Assembly (NCBI GenBank): GCA_963825865.1
Contig: CAWGVG010000060.1
Location: forward strand, 96,001 to 160,000
Source: an uncultured Nitrososphaeraceae archaeon
GTDB taxonomy: Archaea; Thermoproteota; Nitrososphaeria; Nitrososphaerales; Nitrososphaeraceae
DNA length: 64,000 nt
Direction of reading: 5' to 3'
The position numbers and the translations under genes are program-made. Under the pieces are notes generated by a model that was given only the letters and a program-made list of their open reading frames with translations, searched no databases and was not told the DNA's origin. Positions within the stretch are counted from its first letter, which is position 1. Every line of letters starts with the position of its first letter. Of the stretch, positions 54,705-62,611 are shown in pieces.

Positions 54705-55015
54705 AGGCTAAAGCTCTTGCTGAACAAATATAGATTATGCTGCCTAATTTCAATGCTATTAAACTATTAGAGTGCATCCGACTATAACGATAGTTTATTT
54801 CACAATACCCATTATAATTGGGGTATATGTAGACAATCCTGGTTATCCATGATGAAAAAGCAGCGCGTTAATATCTGTTAAATCAAAATATATTATTCAA
54901 ATTTATTCCAATCTAATGGATTATTTTTAGAACTGTTCTCGTATTAAGAATGTGTATTCTAATTTCATATTATAGAAATGAAATCGTTAAAAATGCTTGT
55001 TCATACGTTATTGCA

Positions 55016-55438
55016 ATGGAAAAAACAACAACACATATGGCAGTCGTTTTAGCACTGGCTTTTGGGCTCATTTTGGGGTCAATAGGTTCCGCAAGTTTAG
55101 TACATGCTCAACAGCAACAAGCCAACACAACTGGCGGCGGCAACATGACAAGTAAAAGCACCGGTCCAAGCGCAGCTGGTAATGTAACGAATCCAACTAA
55201 TGCGACCAAATCACCAAGCGTTGTGGGAGGAGGCAATATGACAAGCCCAACTAATGCCAAAGCGGCAAATCAAACAGCGAGTATGCAATCCGGAGGAAAT
55301 AATTCAATGGCTGGGGGTACCAATGCTAGTTCTGGAAATGTAACGAAATCTGGCAATCAAACCAACAGCACCGGAAGTATGTTAAGCAAAATTCCTGTGA
55401 TAGGACCTACGCTTGGAAAGATTTTAGGCGGTAAATAA
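55016..55438 (+). CDS. Secreted low-complexity Gly/Asn/Thr-rich protein
   Basis: Signal peptide ending VHA, repeated GGGNMTS/N-x-T sequons, amphipathic C-terminus LSKIPVIGPTLGKILGGK. Confidence 0.8.
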   Translation: MEKTTTHMAVVLALAFGLILGSIGSASLVHAQQQQANTTGGGNMTSKSTGPSAAGNVTNPTNATKSPSVVGGGNMTSPTNAKAANQTASMQSGGNNSMAGGTNASSGNVTKSGNQTNSTGSMLSKIPVIGPTLGKILGGK

Positions 55439-56011: not shown

Positions 56012-56731
56012 TTAGCCAATACCTGGTCGAAATCTAGATGGCTCTTTTTCCTTTTGAATATCTTCTAGAATTGCTTCGTATTGTTTATCAAGAGGTTTTG
56101 TATCAAGCTTAATATTTTCAATTTTTGCAAATGCTTTCACAATACTTTTAGCCGCCAACGGCTGAGGACTTGTCGCTTCTGAAATTTCACCAAACAATCC
56201 TATTGCATTAATATTTCTATCGGCTGCCAAACCCAAAATTAATCCATTGAACCATGTTATGCTATTAACCTCAGTTCCAACAAGCGCGATGTCCGATTTT
56301 TTAAATACCTCTTTTAATTCTGAGTTATTCACTACTCCGCAAACCCTTGGTGCACCTGTTAATTGTTCATGGAGATAACCACCTGCTCCGTACAAGAGAT
56401 TGACTTTACCTGTGGCTTGTACATAATCCAGGAAGGTATTGCATAAGTTATAAAGCTCCATAGGCTCCTGGGGTTGGGAGTTTCCAGTAAAGATTAACAA
56501 TTTGTTCAATTTGTTATAATATATATTGTAGATATCTAGCGCAGTCTTAACTATACCATCCGAATATAATACCCATGGTTTCTCACTGGATATTATCTCA
56601 GCTACACATTCTGTTTCCAAATTTTCTGCCAAAAACGTTGAGACAAGTCCTCCTACTCTCCCCATATCGGGAAGTGAGGCAAAAACTTTGAATTCATCTA
56701 CTTTTAGATCTTTTATAATATTTAATCTCAT
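56012..56731 (-). CDS. PAC2 (proteasome assembly chaperone) family protein
   Basis: ASLPDMGRVGGLV, IFTGNSQP, GAGG, ITWFNGLILG, GLFGE..PQPLAAK. Confidence 0.88.
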   Translation of the reverse strand: MRLNIIKDLKVDEFKVFASLPDMGRVGGLVSTFLAENLETECVAEIISSEKPWVLYSDGIVKTALDIYNIYYNKLNKLLIFTGNSQPQEPMELYNLCNTFLDYVQATGKVNLLYGAGGYLHEQLTGAPRVCGVVNNSELKEVFKKSDIALVGTEVNSITWFNGLILGLAADRNINAIGLFGEISEATSPQPLAAKSIVKAFAKIENIKLDTKPLDKQYEAILEDIQKEKEPSRFRPGIG

Positions 56732-57616
56732 TTCATATTGTCCATCCCGTTTATCCTTTCAAGAAACGCGGATACTGCCGTATAATCTTGTTGAGAAAAT
56801 CCACTGTTATTTGCTGCCCTATAGATTTGCTGAACTATTGTCGCAGCTGGCAAGAAGATCCCTATAGACTGTGCAGAGGTTGTAACAAGTTCAAGGTCCT
56901 TGAGCATATTTTTAAGATGAAATGATGGCTCGAAATTATTCTTCACCATCTTTGGTCCCTTGGTTTCACTTAGTCCTGTCTTGAAATACGTAGAATTTAA
57001 GATTTGAATAAAAATCTGCGGATCTATTCCAGACGCTTTGACTAGTGTGATTCCTTCTGATATAGCGCTTGCTATCAGAGCTATATTCAGATTTAATGCT
57101 AATTTAACAGCGTTAGCATTGCCGTCAACACTGCCCATATAATATACCGAACGGGCCATTTTTTCAATGATTGGTTTTACTTCTTCAAATACCTCCTTTT
57201 TACCTGCAATTATTGACACCAGTTCACCTTTTTCTGCTGTCTGCCGGACCCCCCATCATGGGCATTTCAAGCATTTCAATTTGGTTTTTCCTAAATAGGT
57301 CGGCACAACACTTTGATTCCTTAGGAGAAATCGTGCTTAAATTTCCTACTATCAGACACTTGCGATTGGATGTAATAATTCCCTCAGTTCCAAAAGATAC
57401 TTGTAGTATTGCTTCGAAGTCTGTAACACAGATTATGATAAAATCGCAAATCTGTGCAAGTTCTTTTGGACTGGTTGCTATCTTGGCATCGATCCTTTCA
57501 AAAGGTTTTGTTTTTGTTGTATCACGATTGTAAACACTAACAACGTGACCAGTATTAATTAATCTTGAAGCAATTTGAGAACCCATTAATCCAAGACCAA
57601 TTACACCGACCCTCAT
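56728..57616 (-). CDS. NAD(P)-dependent beta-hydroxyacid dehydrogenase (3-hydroxyisobutyrate/tartronate semialdehyde family), frameshift near 57240
   Basis: GVIGLGLMG, YNR, STISP, PMMGG, VKLALN, F.LKNMLKDL. Confidence 0.92.
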
Positions 57617-57997
57617 TATACTTGGGTAAAATTAATCCAAGAATAAAAATGATGTCTTTTGGACGTAATTATCCTCGTCATTGCTATTTGCCCAACCTTT
57701 GACCAGCGATTTTTTGATATCATCTGGTTTTAATTAGTTATAAGAAACATTCATCTATCAATAGTATTAGTTTTCGCATTTTCTGGCAACAGGCTTACTC
57801 TCATTTGTTTTCTGGCCAGGATTTATTAGATCCATTTCACTTCATAGTGTTGCTGCTTCGGTGGTTTTATAATAGCTTTATCGTTGTTGTTGTTGTTATT
57901 TCATTAAGCTCTAAAATTAATTAATATTAGAAGTAATGTTCTATTGTTACCATTATATAGTAAGAATATACAAGAATTAAGTATTACAAGCTTTTGA

Positions 57998-58669
57998 TCA
58001 GGTTAATTCTTGAATTTGTAGCTTCTTGATATATTTTATTAATTGTATAGCATCTCGCTCTTTCAGGCTTTCTCTATTGTTGGTTATGTATGCTCGAAAG
58101 GATTCAATATGACTATCAGAACGCGGATATTTCTTCTTTGTTAGGTCCAGGATATCAGTATAATTTCTATATGGAAAATAGATGTTCTTTGCAACTTTTA
58201 TTATCACTCTTTTGGTATTCTCATCAATGATTCCTTTTCTTTTTGCAATAAATAAGTTAAACCTGATATCTATCATTGCTTCTGATTGAAGTATATGGTG
58301 ACCTTCTTCGAAAGTGACTGCTACTTCGTCATCTCCATCAATTTTACCTGTCTTGTAGAGCTGCGAATATTTTACCTATACCAATCATTCCAAATTTTTC
58401 AAGCTCCACCGCCCGCAATGCGCCAAGGCTTGCTGCACCTACAAGGACCATATTTTTTTTTGTTGCTATTTGATAGACCTCTATTGGTGTTGGTGGATAA
58501 TCCTGTAAAAAAAAGCCATCAACCAATCCAACAATCGTTACCTCATTTGTCAAACTTGCAAGCCGAAAAGGTCACCTTTTTTTGCTGGAGGCCTATAATC
58601 TGCTTCAAGAATACTCATTGCCTTTTCACGGCTAAGACTTGGGCCAAGAAAAATTATTGCTCTGTTCAT
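57998..58669 (-). CDS. tfuA: TfuA-like protein, split into three frames by 1-nt indels (~58567, ~58365)
   Basis: Rejoined MNRAIIFLGPSL..DYRPPAKKGDL / VGLVDGFF..GAASLGALRAVELEKFGMIGIGKIF / DDEVAVTF..SEAMIDIR..LKERDA; ATG overlaps the ycaO TGA (ATGA). Confidence 0.92.
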
Positions 58670-59988
58670 CGTTTAAAATACTTCCTTGCTCGATGTCCCA
58701 TAATTGATTTTGTGAATTTGAAAGTTTCTAGCCCGGGAACTATAGCGCGTACCACTGGAATGCCAATATAATCATTTGTCAGGGTAACGATTATCGCTGT
58801 TCTTAAACCAGCCTGTTCTAAACGATTTAAAATCAGCTTAATGTCATCAAGAATATCTTCATTAATGTATGTTTTAATTTCAGAGAATCTAATTGTACGT
58901 TTGGATGGCATGAACTGCCACGCGCGTTTATCGTCAGTATTATTTTCCCCATATCTAATTTTTCTCAGATCATCCCTTGCACCCTGAATGTTAGCGGCTC
59001 TTGTTTGTGAAACCTCAGTTATAGCGCGTAATAATGCTATACGTGCATCTGGATGGGTTCCATGTCCTTCTGCAAGATACCCATAGTTATTGGTTATCCA
59101 TTCAATACTGCTTGCATTAAATGTTGGAATACCTATATCTGATGTGACATCCTTTATTATCAGAGGGATTCTAGCTTTTGTAAATTTTTTGACCATATTT
59201 TTTAGTGGCTGAAATTCAATGTCTGAAATGTCAACGTCAGGAAATATTCCTGCGTCATCCATGAATTTATCCGCTGGAATTGCTGATAGAGGATAACCTT
59301 GCGTCTTCAGTGAGTTCATTATACATCGTAAAAAGTGAAATGGGATAGCGCTAGCACGTAATTCGGCTAGACTTATTGCATCTCGCTCTATGACTTCACA
59401 TAATGAATGACATATTGCCTCTTCCTCTACATTGCCAGATGCAAGTCCATTTGTATGGTGGAATGCAAATGGATTAATAACAGGAGATTTGGGACAGTAT
59501 CTAAATAATGCAAGCGGCGCAGGGACCATAATTTGCTCACCTGACAATAAGTCAACTCCAGGAAGGAATTCCATTAGCATATTATTTTTGTATTCAAACC
59601 TAACGGGTTCTACAACCTCATTAGGATGCAAGACTTTCGATGTCTTTGATAGTTCGTCGTAACTTCCTACGATAAAATTCCTAGGAGCTCCACTGGGTAG
59701 AGAAGTATATCTCTCGATGCTCTCCATTAAGGCACTAGCCTTTGCATGTTCCCTTGTTTGACCTTTTCCGTTATACACCCAAATGTAATCTTCTGTTCCC
59801 GGTAAAACTGCCGAATAATTTGGTATACGTAATATATCCATATGCGTAATATCAGCAAGTCTGGTCACCCCTATATTTTTGGATAATGTTGTAATTTTAT
59901 TGAGTGTCTCTTGGGGAGAATTTATTCTTGTAGTTCCCTTTTTCGTCCACTTTTTTCTGCTTTTAAGAAATAGTGGCTGAGCACTCAT
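58666..59988 (-). CDS. ycaO: YcaO-family ATP-dependent peptide backbone-activating enzyme (TfuA-associated, thioamide-forming type)
   Basis: GVTRLADIT..D.L.IP, NGKG..AKASALMESIER, TNGLASGN..EEAICHSLCEVIERDA, RAITEVSQTR, IPVVRAIVPGLE. Confidence 0.95.
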   Translation of the reverse strand: MSAQPLFLKSRKKWTKKGTTRINSPQETLNKITTLSKNIGVTRLADITHMDILRIPNYSAVLPGTEDYIWVYNGKGQTREHAKASALMESIERYTSLPSGAPRNFIVGSYDELSKTSKVLHPNEVVEPVRFEYKNNMLMEFLPGVDLLSGEQIMVPAPLALFRYCPKSPVINPFAFHHTNGLASGNVEEEAICHSLCEVIERDAISLAELRASAIPFHFLRCIMNSLKTQGYPLSAIPADKFMDDAGIFPDVDISDIEFQPLKNMVKKFTKARIPLIIKDVTSDIGIPTFNASSIEWITNNYGYLAEGHGTHPDARIALLRAITEVSQTRAANIQGARDDLRKIRYGENNTDDKRAWQFMPSKRTIRFSEIKTYINEDILDDIKLILNRLEQAGLRTAIIVTLTNDYIGIPVVRAIVPGLETFKFTKSIMGHRARKYFKR

Positions 59989-60036
59989 GATTATGAGCCC
60001 TTGTATTAGACCATATCAAGTTTACGAATCAGACAT

Positions 60037-60050
60037 AGAAATATATATTA
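60037..60050 (+). promoter_or_regulatory. Putative BRE/TATA box for the 60075 peptide gene
   Basis: AGAA-ATATATATTA ending about 25 nt upstream of the TTG start, consistent with archaeal leaderless spacing. Confidence 0.45.
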
Positions 60051-60074
60051 GATTTTGCATTTGTCTCTTATTAG

Positions 60075-60251
60075 TTGAACCCGCGACAGAAGGACGCTGA
60101 GATCATTAGCGAAATTCTTTTGAGAGCCACTAGTGAACCCGAATTCAGAAACCTATTGATTAAGGACCCTACAAAATTCTTAGAGCAATACAGTATTTCA
60201 CGAGAGGCCAAATTGATTATAAAAACCAGTATAGTTGATCTTACCCAATAG
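60075..60251 (+). CDS. 58-aa NHLP-leader-like peptide (absent from ORF track), divergent from ycaO
   Basis: MNPRQKDAEIISEILLRATSEPEFRNLLIKDPTKFLEQYSISREAKLIIKTSIVDLTQ matches the NHLP-clan pattern I..RA..(D/E)PEFR..L..DP...L..Y. Confidence 0.75.
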   Translation: MNPRQKDAEIISEILLRATSEPEFRNLLIKDPTKFLEQYSISREAKLIIKTSIVDLTQ

Positions 60252-60394
60252 CGCATATATGTCCGTATTTTTATGTGTTTTCATAAATTGCATCGCATAG
60301 GCTAAAACCTATAGTCAAATAAAATGCATGTATTTTTTTGTTTTCAGTGCTTGGTATGAAAACATTAAAATTTATTCTCGAACTTTTTTAGCTA

Positions 60395-61243
60395 ATGAAA
60401 AAATCTGTGGCGGTTGCATTGGTATTATTTCTTGGAGTTTTCCTGACAGTCATAATAGTTAGTCTGCGTATACTTGCACAGATAAACACAGCAGCCAATG
60501 CTATTAGTTACAATGTGATGACAGCAGAAAGGTTAGACACGTTTTCTGCCATGGGTACAATATCTTCTTTGATTTTTGACTCAGGAACATCATTACCATC
60601 AGCAACCACTAACGGAAATCAATCACATACATCTGGCAATCAAACCAAAGATATTATATCTCCAGGTACAAACACAGTAACAACTGAAGAAAAAGGGGAA
60701 GCACCATATGCTTTATCTGGTGACTGGAACTTGAAAGTGGAGAGAGGAAAGGTAAAGGATTTTACGGCAAAATTCACTATGGTACGTGTTGATGGAAGTC
60801 AACGCCATATACATGAACTAATTAACTTTAAAACCGGCAATTACAGCGACATTCAATTGGATCCGACAAATATCACTTTTATCAAGGGAACCTCCAGTGT
60901 TAGAACAAATGGTATTGAAACTTGGAGAGGGGTAGACACATTTCTATTGATTAACAAATTGAAGGTACTAAGCATAATTCCAAGCTCACAGGAAGTAAAT
61001 GATCACTTCAAAGGACAGCCAATTTATGGCATAACAGAATCAATGAAAGACAAAACCGGCAATGATATCATCGTATCATCCAATAGCATGACTCCTAGTA
61101 TCAATGGAACTATATCCAATTTTGTAGCTAATGGGACAGAAGAAGGAAAATCATTCTCTAACAAACCAGGAAAAACAGCGAATGCAACTATAAACAATTC
61201 CTCATTAGAAAGCTTGTACAGGAAATTTTTTGGCTCTTCTTGA
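60395..61243 (+). CDS. Secreted/membrane-anchored hypothetical protein; paralogue of 25992-26664
   Basis: N-terminal TM; LSGDWNL, DGSQRHIHELINF, HFKGQPIYG. Confidence 0.8.
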   Translation: MKKSVAVALVLFLGVFLTVIIVSLRILAQINTAANAISYNVMTAERLDTFSAMGTISSLIFDSGTSLPSATTNGNQSHTSGNQTKDIISPGTNTVTTEEKGEAPYALSGDWNLKVERGKVKDFTAKFTMVRVDGSQRHIHELINFKTGNYSDIQLDPTNITFIKGTSSVRTNGIETWRGVDTFLLINKLKVLSIIPSSQEVNDHFKGQPIYGITESMKDKTGNDIIVSSNSMTPSINGTISNFVANGTEEGKSFSNKPGKTANATINNSSLESLYRKFFGSS

Positions 61244-61573: not shown

Positions 61574-62611
61574 TCATTGCGTTCTTTTTGGCTCTTCCTT
61601 AGACATCATTTTTATCTCTTCCGGAGTTGGCTCTGTTTCCCTTTCGAATTTGCCGCTTACTAGTGCACTTGGCACATCTATCCATAATGAACTGCCATCA
61701 TAATTGTTTATGTATGACTTAGGAATGTAATAGTGATGAATTTTTACATCTCCTTCTCTAACTGCAATAAATTCATTTCCTACTGTTTCAACATCTCCTA
61801 TGTCTATATTGTCAGTTGTTCTGACATGCTTATGAATTACCTCTTCCCATGGGATATTGAGTGTCTTTCCCGATGATTCTGATTCAATGGCAACACCTGA
61901 CTCTTTGGCCATAAACGGTACCCCATATCTGAATTGTGGATATGCAGATTCTGTTTTTCTCATTTGTTCTTCGTATTGCTGCGTCTTGAATTCGGATTCA
62001 GAAGGAGGGCTATCTCGTTGATATTTGTCTTTGATTTCATCTTTCGTCAAGGATGCAAATAAGTCTTTACCGTCGAATCCTTGAATGTAGTATTTGGGTA
62101 TATAATAGTGCTTTTTACTTACGGTCCCTTCCTTGACTTCTATGTAATCAGTCGAAACGCTTTCAACCTCCCCTATCTCTTGGCTATCACTTGATTTTAC
62201 CTTCTTGTCGAGAATTTTTTCCCAAGGCAACCCAACCATGTCTTGGGAAGTAGTGGTCTGTCCTGATTTTGATCCAGTATGTGCAGGAATATTATTTGCA
62301 AAATCAGGGAAGTCTTTTGTCATTGTTGTCCTTCTCTCTGTATACTCTGGTGTCTCAAATTCTGAAGGGTCAGGTGCTTTTTCTTTCTCATATCTTGATT
62401 TTACTTCGTCTTTTGTCAATGAAATCCAAAGGTTGTCACCATCATATCCTTGGATATAATATTTGGGGATGTAATAGTAATTCTTTGATACTAATCCTTC
62501 TTTGGTCTGTATAAAGTCTTTAGTTATACTTTGGACCTTCCCTAAATCTTGGCTATCACTTGATTTTACCTTCTTGTCGATCGCCTTATCCCACGATATA
62601 ATATCGGCCAT
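61574..62611 (-). CDS. Protein of three tandem PRC-barrel/DUF2171-like domains
   Basis: Three repeats of W....K.V...D..D.G.V..V....I...EG.V....YYIPK.YI..YDG..LW. Confidence 0.82.
   Translation of the reverse strand: MADIISWDKAIDKKVKSSDSQDLGKVQSITKDFIQTKEGLVSKNYYYIPKYYIQGYDGDNLWISLTKDEVKSRYEKEKAPDPSEFETPEYTERRTTMTKDFPDFANNIPAHTGSKSGQTTTSQDMVGLPWEKILDKKVKSSDSQEIGEVESVSTDYIEVKEGTVSKKHYYIPKYYIQGFDGKDLFASLTKDEIKDKYQRDSPPSESEFKTQQYEEQMRKTESAYPQFRYGVPFMAKESGVAIESESSGKTLNIPWEEVIHKHVRTTDNIDIGDVETVGNEFIAVREGDVKIHHYYIPKSYINNYDGSSLWIDVPSALVSGKFERETEPTPEEIKMMSKEEPKRTQ

Follow-up and report, generated by a model that had tools for sequence, protein, structure and literature searches.

A diverged ycaO–tfuA pair and a divergently encoded NHLP-like small protein in ammonia-oxidizing Nitrososphaeraceae form a candidate thioamidation module

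Enzyme pairs of the YcaO and TfuA families are known from methanogens, where they thioamidate a glycine of McrA. Here we analyze a ycaO–tfuA pair, and the gene for a 58-residue small protein that lies beside it, in a 64,000-nucleotide stretch of DNA from an uncultured Nitrososphaeraceae archaeon (the window, by which we mean this whole stretch). Several described systems come close to this locus. First, the methanogen pair is represented by the NCBIfam models TIGR03266 and NF033432 and by the solved structures of MJ1094 (6pe3/6peu); according to a passage of PMC5589413, YcaO homologues of ammonia-oxidizing archaea fall within the methanogen clade, and the relevant passage of PMC9635834 merely cites that 2017 paper. 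Second, bacterial TfuA–YcaO clusters for thioamidated RiPPs (peptides made on the ribosome and modified after translation; thioamitide-type and others) likewise place a YcaO and a TfuA beside a small candidate precursor gene. The passages of PMC8120280 that deal with them describe Nif11-like precursors in bacterial TfuA clusters, state the Gly-Gly site of such precursors, and mention eight thaumarchaeal TfuA clusters. Third, the NHLP/Nif11 clan of precursors includes, as the family nearest to our small protein, the Os1348 family (NF038399; Os1348 of Pseudomonas sp. Os17, 6lk7). In the part of PMC7726476 concerned with it, Os1348 is a putative precursor with a crystal structure, and its cluster has acetyltransferase, peptidase, and SagB-like genes; the archaeal small protein is paired with YcaO–TfuA instead. 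Finally, the azoline-forming (TOMM/cyanobactin) YcaOs LynD, TruD, and MusD share the YcaO domain.

In the open literature that we searched, the enzymes of ammonia oxidizers are mentioned only in PMC5589413 and PMC8120280; the passages in question note the YcaO (2017) and the TfuA clusters (2021) in passing and propose no substrate there. The initial annotation of the window had suggested an undescribed archaeal pathway. For the enzyme pair this goes too far, the pair being already in print. What is new here is the conserved NHLP-like partner and the docking insertion in YcaO, neither of which we found described in the main texts of the open literature searched (the supplementary tables of PMC8120280 may list predicted thaumarchaeal precursors).

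We consider the chances about even that ycaO, tfuA, and the divergent NHLP-like gene make up one intact module of three genes, which part of the ammonia-oxidizing archaea has conserved and which acts by the mechanism proposed below. The elements concerned are as follows.

58666-59988, minus strand: ycaO, an intact open reading frame (ORF) encoding 440 residues and ending in ...RARKYFKR; a diverged relative of the YcaO of McrA-glycine thioamidation.
59209-59352, minus strand: the YcaO insertion, codons 213-260, a helix plus loop; lineage-specific, predicted docking site of the small protein.
57998-58669, minus strand: tfuA, coupled to ycaO by an ATGA overlap; in three frame pieces in this assembly.
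59989-60074: the divergent intergenic region, 86 bp between the ycaO start codon and the small-protein gene.
60075-60251, plus strand: the small-protein (peptide) gene, 58 codons with a TTG start; a four-helix protein, distant member of the NHLP clan, candidate partner or substrate.

The tfuA ATG (58669-58667) overlaps the ycaO stop TGA (58668-58666). This arrangement of an intact YcaO, a coupled but fragmented tfuA, and a peptide gene 86 bp away is the one that the initial annotation had given, at the same coordinates.

The YcaO is a full-length member of its superfamily (Pfam PF02624, 242.1 bits, E 1.3e-71, profile positions 1-325 of 325; cut-off 25.7). Its top NCBIfam model is TIGR03266, the family of McrA-glycine thioamidation, which it matches in two stretches at 279.7 bits, under the cut-off of 365; the YcaO of a related locus, L020, also remains under that cut-off, at 287.8 bits. 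The closest solved structure is again a methanogen protein, M. jannaschii MJ1094 (6pe3, E 4.3e-40), and the ycaO–tfuA gene order is shared with the methanogen pair. Glu residues E89, E92, E198, and E201, which we take to be ATP/Mg2+ ligands, are invariant in an alignment of 17 orthologues, and the acidic motifs pair with the MJ1094 stretches ...MEAIER... and ...EIIERDA.... The top-scoring family for TfuA is likewise that of the methanogen pair, NF033432, against which an intact TfuA orthologue (from locus L027) scores 209.8 bits with a cut-off of 235.2. Because neither cut-off is reached, the two enzymes are, as far as profile scores can place them, diverged relatives of the methanogen pair and not equivalogs. 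The YcaO placement draws on hidden Markov model (HMM) scores, the PDB match, and the statement in PMC5589413. The initial annotation was right to see a YcaO–TfuA pair here, and the closest models of the pair are those of McrA thioamidation. The window genome differs from the methanogen system in having no detected McrA, a YcaO with an insertion of ~35 residues, and a dedicated small partner. By analogy with the characterized relatives, the pair would be expected to carry out thioamidation chemistry.

The likeness to azoline-forming enzymes is more distant. LynD, TruD, and MusD are found in the PDB at E values of 2.8e-21 to 9.6e-18, but the azoline-forming model TIGR03604 gives the window YcaO 142.2 bits, under its cut-off of 219.25, and the window holds no fused or adjacent E1-like/RRE partner. 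A Pro-rich C-terminal tail marks the azoline-forming class, and the window YcaO, ending in ...RARKYFKR, has no such tail.

The genome contains, on another contig, a second YcaO-domain gene (G000:C36:36709-37813; L017-L019), which is spread over at least three frames with ORFs of 129, 89/98, and 235 residues. No TfuA lies beside it, and the only TfuA match of the genome is the window locus.

The host genome (4.98 Mb, 62 contigs) carries archaeal amoA (383 bits), which supports the identification of the host as an ammonia oxidizer. The search for mcrA, a check that the initial annotation had proposed, gave no MCR_alpha (PF02249) match in this 81.8%-complete genome, and controls in two methanogens were positive. 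Among GTDB species genomes, the best 80 relatives of the YcaO (the top one 78% identical) are all titled Nitrososphaeraceae, Nitrososphaera sp., Candidatus Nitrosopolaris, or something broader (Nitrososphaerales, Nitrosopumilales, Thermoproteota). The earlier picture of an ammonia-oxidizing, Nitrososphaeraceae-like host without Mcr is therefore supported.

Relatives that do possess Mcr provide an informative contrast. Three genomes placed in the same order by the classification tool (G068, G110, and G085, with loci L036, L037, and L038) carry methanogen-type ycaO–tfuA pairs without the peptide gene, and their YcaOs show a 35-column gap at the position of the insertion. The pair of G068 passes the methanogen equivalog cut-offs (YcaO 492.1 bits, TfuA 270.8 bits). 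McrA is encoded in all three (L127-L129; ORFs of 554-557 residues, PF02249 196-203 bits), whereas a search of these genomes for amoA found none. Oppositely, G027 and G032, from the two other families that bear the peptide, have amoA, and no McrA was found there. In these genomes, insertion and peptide thus track the Mcr-less ammonia oxidizers, and the plain YcaO accompanies Mcr.

In the Mcr-bearing loci L036-L038, a NifB-like radical SAM gene lies convergent and directly downstream of tfuA. We also considered whether the conserved C-terminus of the peptide mimics the thioglycine site of McrA. A D-L-Q-like regular expression had no match in the three McrA proteins of L127-L129, where the site region reads differently, and the idea was dropped.

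The small-protein gene is coding beyond chance, as its differences among eight ungapped orthologues fall at the three codon positions as 372/254/876. This third-position excess is a coding signature and, at the level of sequence comparison, shows purifying selection on the peptide frame. Fifteen orthologues align over the full length, with A18, P22, F24, R25, L36, and K46 invariant; conservation of the sequence is high even between genera and, within the host's family, extends to the C-terminus, and the TTG start occupies the same alignment position in most orthologues. By eye, an A/T-rich, TATA-like stretch lies at 60040-60050, ~30 nt ahead of the TTG, and may be the promoter of the gene. This spacing, together with the TTG, would fit an mRNA that begins at a non-AUG codon and has a short leader or none.

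In the AlphaFold model the whole 58-residue protein is helical, with helices at 3-20, 22-30, 32-36, and 43-57 and a pLDDT of 89.3. The initial annotation had called the peptide NHLP-like, and at a sub-threshold level it is: the window sequence scores 19.3 bits against NF038399 (cut-off 40), 17.3 bits against TIGR03793 (cut-off 50.9), and 17.1 bits against the Pfam family Frankia_peptide. At E ≤ 0.01, NF038399 is matched by 12 of 15 family members and TIGR03793 by 10 of 15, with a best E value of 4.9e-6. The similarity also runs in the reverse direction. A profile of the peptide family, searched against 1.84 billion representatives, retrieved 172 proteins at E ≤ 0.001 (29 at E ≤ 1e-10), and when ten of the more distant matches were scanned, five passed the NF038399 cut-off and two passed that of TIGR03793. 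As leads only, the ESM Atlas places the peptide nearest to a 574-member cluster of Nitrososphaerota titled "hypothetical protein" (0.89), with Nif11 and Os1348 clusters at 0.81-0.83, and weak Foldseek rows point to a proteusin precursor (8tb1, TM 0.53) and to Os1348 (6lk7, TM 0.55). In contrast to its clan, the peptide scores under the cut-offs, has neither a core peptide following the leader-like domain nor a Gly-Gly site, and belongs to a family confined, in the samples searched, to three archaeal families. The small protein thus appears, on similarity at the level of the clan and below curated thresholds, to be a remote branch of the NHLP clan that consists of the leader alone.

The association of the peptide gene with ycaO–tfuA, which the initial annotation had proposed to compare across relatives, is conserved. 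Of 16 loci drawn from three families, 14 have the peptide gene in divergent orientation upstream of ycaO (13 found by tblastn and L035 by reading of ORFs); it was not found beside ycaO in the other two, L022 and L025. TfuA is present in all 24 other genomes of the same family that were sampled; elsewhere in the order, 2 of the 16 genomes sampled from different families have it. A second, even sample comprised 151 genomes of the order, including the window's own genome (G000). There, 46 have TfuA and 43 match the peptide profile: 41 have both, 2 the peptide only, 5 TfuA only, and 103 neither. Of the 41 genomes that have both, 32 carry the two matches no more than 4 kb apart on a single contig, and 9 do not. 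Of the peptide-only genomes, G080 has a weak and probably spurious match inside an 899-residue frame, and G121 is 67% complete. The TfuA-only genomes are G064 (TfuA at a contig edge), G100 (fragmented), and the Mcr-bearing G068, G085, and G110. Where the genes are linked, a median of 69 nt separates the end of the peptide frame from the ycaO start. The peptide gene is single-copy per genome, and 300 further genomes of the phylum yielded only three weak, partial matches to it. These co-occurrence counts do not represent independent events.

The insertion in YcaO offers a candidate physical link between the two proteins. Segment 213-260 spans 48 residues where its MJ1094 counterpart has 14, and the resulting insertion of ~35 residues, modeled as a helix at 214-229 plus a loop, is present in all 17 aligned YcaO orthologues. 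A prediction of the YcaO–peptide complex, made from our own alignments (17 rows for YcaO, 15 for the peptide), gave a median ipSAE of 0.72, against 0.01 for the best of three controls; in calibration, which is only rough for alignments of our own, this mark was attained by 58 of the 80 solved complexes and by 2 of the 110 mismatched pairs. The runs share at least 94% of their contacts, with a partner pLDDT of at least 87. The predicted interface joins YcaO residues 216-247 and 438-440 to peptide residues 4-29 and 44-58. The modeling thus supports binding between YcaO and the small protein, and the latter is most likely the cognate partner of this YcaO.

These observations suggest the following mechanism. 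First, the folded small protein would dock through its first and last helices on the helix–loop insertion (YcaO ~214-250) that is unique to this YcaO lineage. Second, YcaO, with ATP, would activate the oxygen of a backbone amide in the docked small protein. Third, TfuA, which is said to hydrolyze ThiS thiocarboxylate, would supply sulfide taken from the thiocarboxylate of a ThiS-type carrier whose gene lies at another place in the genome. Finally, the product would be a backbone thioamide on the small protein, which would stay uncleaved and intracellular. In agreement with the initial annotation, a search of the window neighborhood with Pfam and NCBIfam revealed no sulfur carrier, peptidase, or exporter gene adjacent to the module; three ThiS-family matches occur elsewhere in the host genome.

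The small protein is probably the substrate of ATP-dependent backbone thioamidation, a chemistry proposed here by analogy with the characterized relatives of the enzymes. That it is a substrate rather than a mere partner, like its site of modification and its cellular role, is something we infer. The explanation taken as a whole, an intact three-gene module with docking and thioamidation of the small protein, seems to us as apt to be right as wrong. A broader evolutionary account can be offered more tentatively, and we would rate it below even odds: part of the ammonia oxidizers would have kept McrA-type enzymes without Mcr and redirected them, through the insertion as docking platform, to a dedicated 58-residue NHLP-like protein, which would be left uncleaved with its thioamide. 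That such a thioamidated protein might bind a soft metal, for example copper, in these copper-dependent organisms is pure speculation.

The question of what role thioamide enzymes play in archaea without methanogenesis thereby gains a testable answer. The candidate now supplied is a co-occurring, linked small protein that is predicted to dock on the very insertion that separates these YcaOs from the Mcr-associated ones. If this were true, backbone thioamidation in archaea would extend beyond Mcr, the uncleaved small protein would be the first thioamidated archaeal protein known besides Mcr, and the system would show how a modification enzyme can be retargeted by gaining a docking insertion and a leader-like partner.

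A number of findings weigh against the proposal. Some concern the small protein: all its scores to NHLP models are under the curated cut-offs, and a Foldseek search of its model against the PDB gave nothing at E ≤ 0.001. It is modeled as fully folded, without a free tail, and so could be an adaptor or regulator and not a substrate. The characterized relatives of the enzymes modify glycine, and the peptide family has no conserved glycine. The predicted interface lists only the insertion and YcaO 438-440, with no contact to the conserved Glu residues of the active site, and a thioamide or any other modification of the small protein is here a prediction from genes and models. Others concern the genomes. 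Linkage is often lost: among the 80 closest YcaO loci, the peptide gene lies upstream in 29 of the 75 with enough upstream sequence (28 by script, L062 by hand). The loci without it are mostly titled Nitrososphaera sp., and in five of five hand-picked genomes without an upstream copy (one of which, G003, was already counted) the peptide gene occurs elsewhere. Co-occurrence tracks three whole families and may reflect very few evolutionary events. Last, the window does carry two frameshifts in tfuA, and a truly broken copy in this genome is possible, the public runs used for comparison (see below) not being tied to its source.

The folded peptide, an interface that lists no residue of the active site, and a family in which no glycine is conserved together keep alive a reading in which the small protein binds YcaO as an adaptor, chaperone, or regulator and YcaO–TfuA thioamidates some other cellular protein of ammonia oxidizers. 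We regard this as unlikely, though worth serious attention. An adaptor would suit the predicted complex, in which the four-helix protein sits completely folded on the insertion, as well as the lack of a disordered core in the peptide and the retention of both genes, though unlinked, in the loci titled Nitrososphaera. However, the annotated relatives in the NHLP clan are named RiPP precursors where their models are described and are treated as precursors, that is, substrates, in the passages of PMC7726476 that concern them, and the neighborhood yielded no other substrate candidate.

It is less probable still that the peptide gene is a mere neighbor, functionally unrelated to YcaO–TfuA, and that the docking prediction is a false positive. 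Such a coincidence could produce co-occurrence at the level of whole families, and it would fit the lack of linkage in 46 of the 75 close loci and the fact that 2 of 110 mismatched pairs reach the docking mark. But the divergent layout is kept in three families at short distance, the interface falls exactly where the YcaOs of peptide-bearing lineages, and no others, have the insertion, and all three docking controls were at or below 0.01. We therefore consider this improbable.

The proposal of an intact module, to which we return, also requires that tfuA be functional. In the window its reading frame is interrupted twice.

58567-58568: first tfuA frameshift; the window misses one base, and four of four public runs carry an extra G behind 58567.
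58363: second tfuA frameshift; an extra base in the window, left out in four of four public runs.

The first frame piece runs for 39 codons to a stop, the core (58553-58344) lies in a second frame, and the C-terminal part, to 57998, is in the first frame again. The breaks are thus two 1-nt frameshifts of opposite sign, ~200 nt apart. In the HMM searches for both enzymes that the initial annotation had advised, the core piece matches PF07812 at 59.7 bits over profile positions 1-56, and the other matching piece covers positions 52-118. To compare populations, we used Logan contigs of four public runs (soil or unlabeled) from four different studies over 57900-60300. These show only the two indels relative to the window, at 58363 and 58567, and six substitutions common to all four runs (58365, 58413, 58753, 58834, 59218, and 59857), which point to consensus errors or a distinct strain. 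With both 1-nt differences applied, tfuA becomes one frame of 223 codons, from 58669 to 57998, whose product aligns end to end with all 16 relatives compared; with the closest of them, L027, it shares 71% identity in an ungapped alignment. Of the 80 closest YcaO loci, 73 extend at least 720 nt downstream, and every one of these has a full-length TfuA in a single segment.

Fragmentation of tfuA is therefore a property of this assembly that is unseen in the population sampled by the four runs. Because both indels are missing there and a full-length frame is restored, the frameshifts are most likely errors of consensus or assembly; because the runs may come from samples other than the source, this conclusion is strong and not final. 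The concern of the initial annotation over the integrity of tfuA is to that extent settled in favor of an intact gene. Should tfuA instead be a real pseudogene in this genome, the module would be dead here, and the two frameshifts, with their in-frame stops, are what one would see in the window. Against this stand the absence of both indels from all four runs and studies and the recognizable TfuA signal, at 59.7 bits, that the frame-shifted stretch still gives in its own frame. Other genes of the assembly, moreover, are similarly broken, among them the second ycaO and a 3-hydroxyisobutyrate-dehydrogenase-like gene (56728-57616, minus strand), which is split by a frameshift into 130 and 163 residues and has a single 295-residue ORF as its counterpart in L027; this gene lies beyond the region of the public-run comparison. 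ORFs of at least 300 residues are also sparser here, at 162 per Mb (counted over 1.26 Mb of the genome) versus 367 per Mb in the relatives' loci, a crude comparison in that ycaO guided the choice of those loci and their base composition is different. We judge a pseudogene to be very improbable.

Equally doubtful is a reading suggested by the initial annotation, a classical NHLP-leader RiPP precursor that would be thioamidated, cleaved, and exported as a natural product: sub-threshold similarity to the NHLP clan and the bacterial TfuA clusters with Nif11-like precursors (in the relevant passages of PMC8120280) speak for it, but the archaeal candidate is a conserved folded protein of only 58 residues, all modeled as one helical domain, it is single-copy, its C-terminus is conserved in the family and not variable, and, unlike the bacterial clusters, the window has no adjacent tailoring enzyme, peptidase, or transporter. 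NHLP precursors carry a Gly-Gly cleavage site, and the window peptide, with zero glycine, has none.

The remaining genes around the module are of less certain relevance. Its neighbors encode a PAC2-family protein, the 3-hydroxyisobutyrate-dehydrogenase-like protein, a 282-residue protein, and a DUF2171 repeat protein.

60395-61243, plus strand: the 282-residue protein, predicted to be membrane-anchored or secreted, with a hydrophobic N-terminus; downstream of the peptide gene, membership in the module uncertain.

This protein has no match in Pfam or NCBIfam. We considered its gene as a conserved operon partner, or a core part, of the module and rejected it: among the scanned sequences in which the script found the peptide gene (20 of 22), homologues follow that gene only in the window, L039 (6206-7192), and L040 (6232-7233). 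In the latter two loci, from two genera, the peptide gene is apart from ycaO–tfuA, and the homologue stays with the peptide gene. In loci of other families (L020, L041, and L043), a different family occupies the position after the peptide gene, and in most loci no same-strand ORF of at least 120 residues follows within 700 nt.

Two other proteins may be mentioned. The DUF2171 protein (345 residues, 61574-62611, minus strand) has three internal repeats and matches DUF2171 at 57 bits, and a 74%-identical homologue also adjoins the peptide gene in L027. Farther away, a low-complexity ORF of 162 residues (54950-55438, plus strand), rich in Asn, Thr, Ser, and Gly, begins with a hydrophobic N-terminal segment, and its product looks secreted or surface-located.

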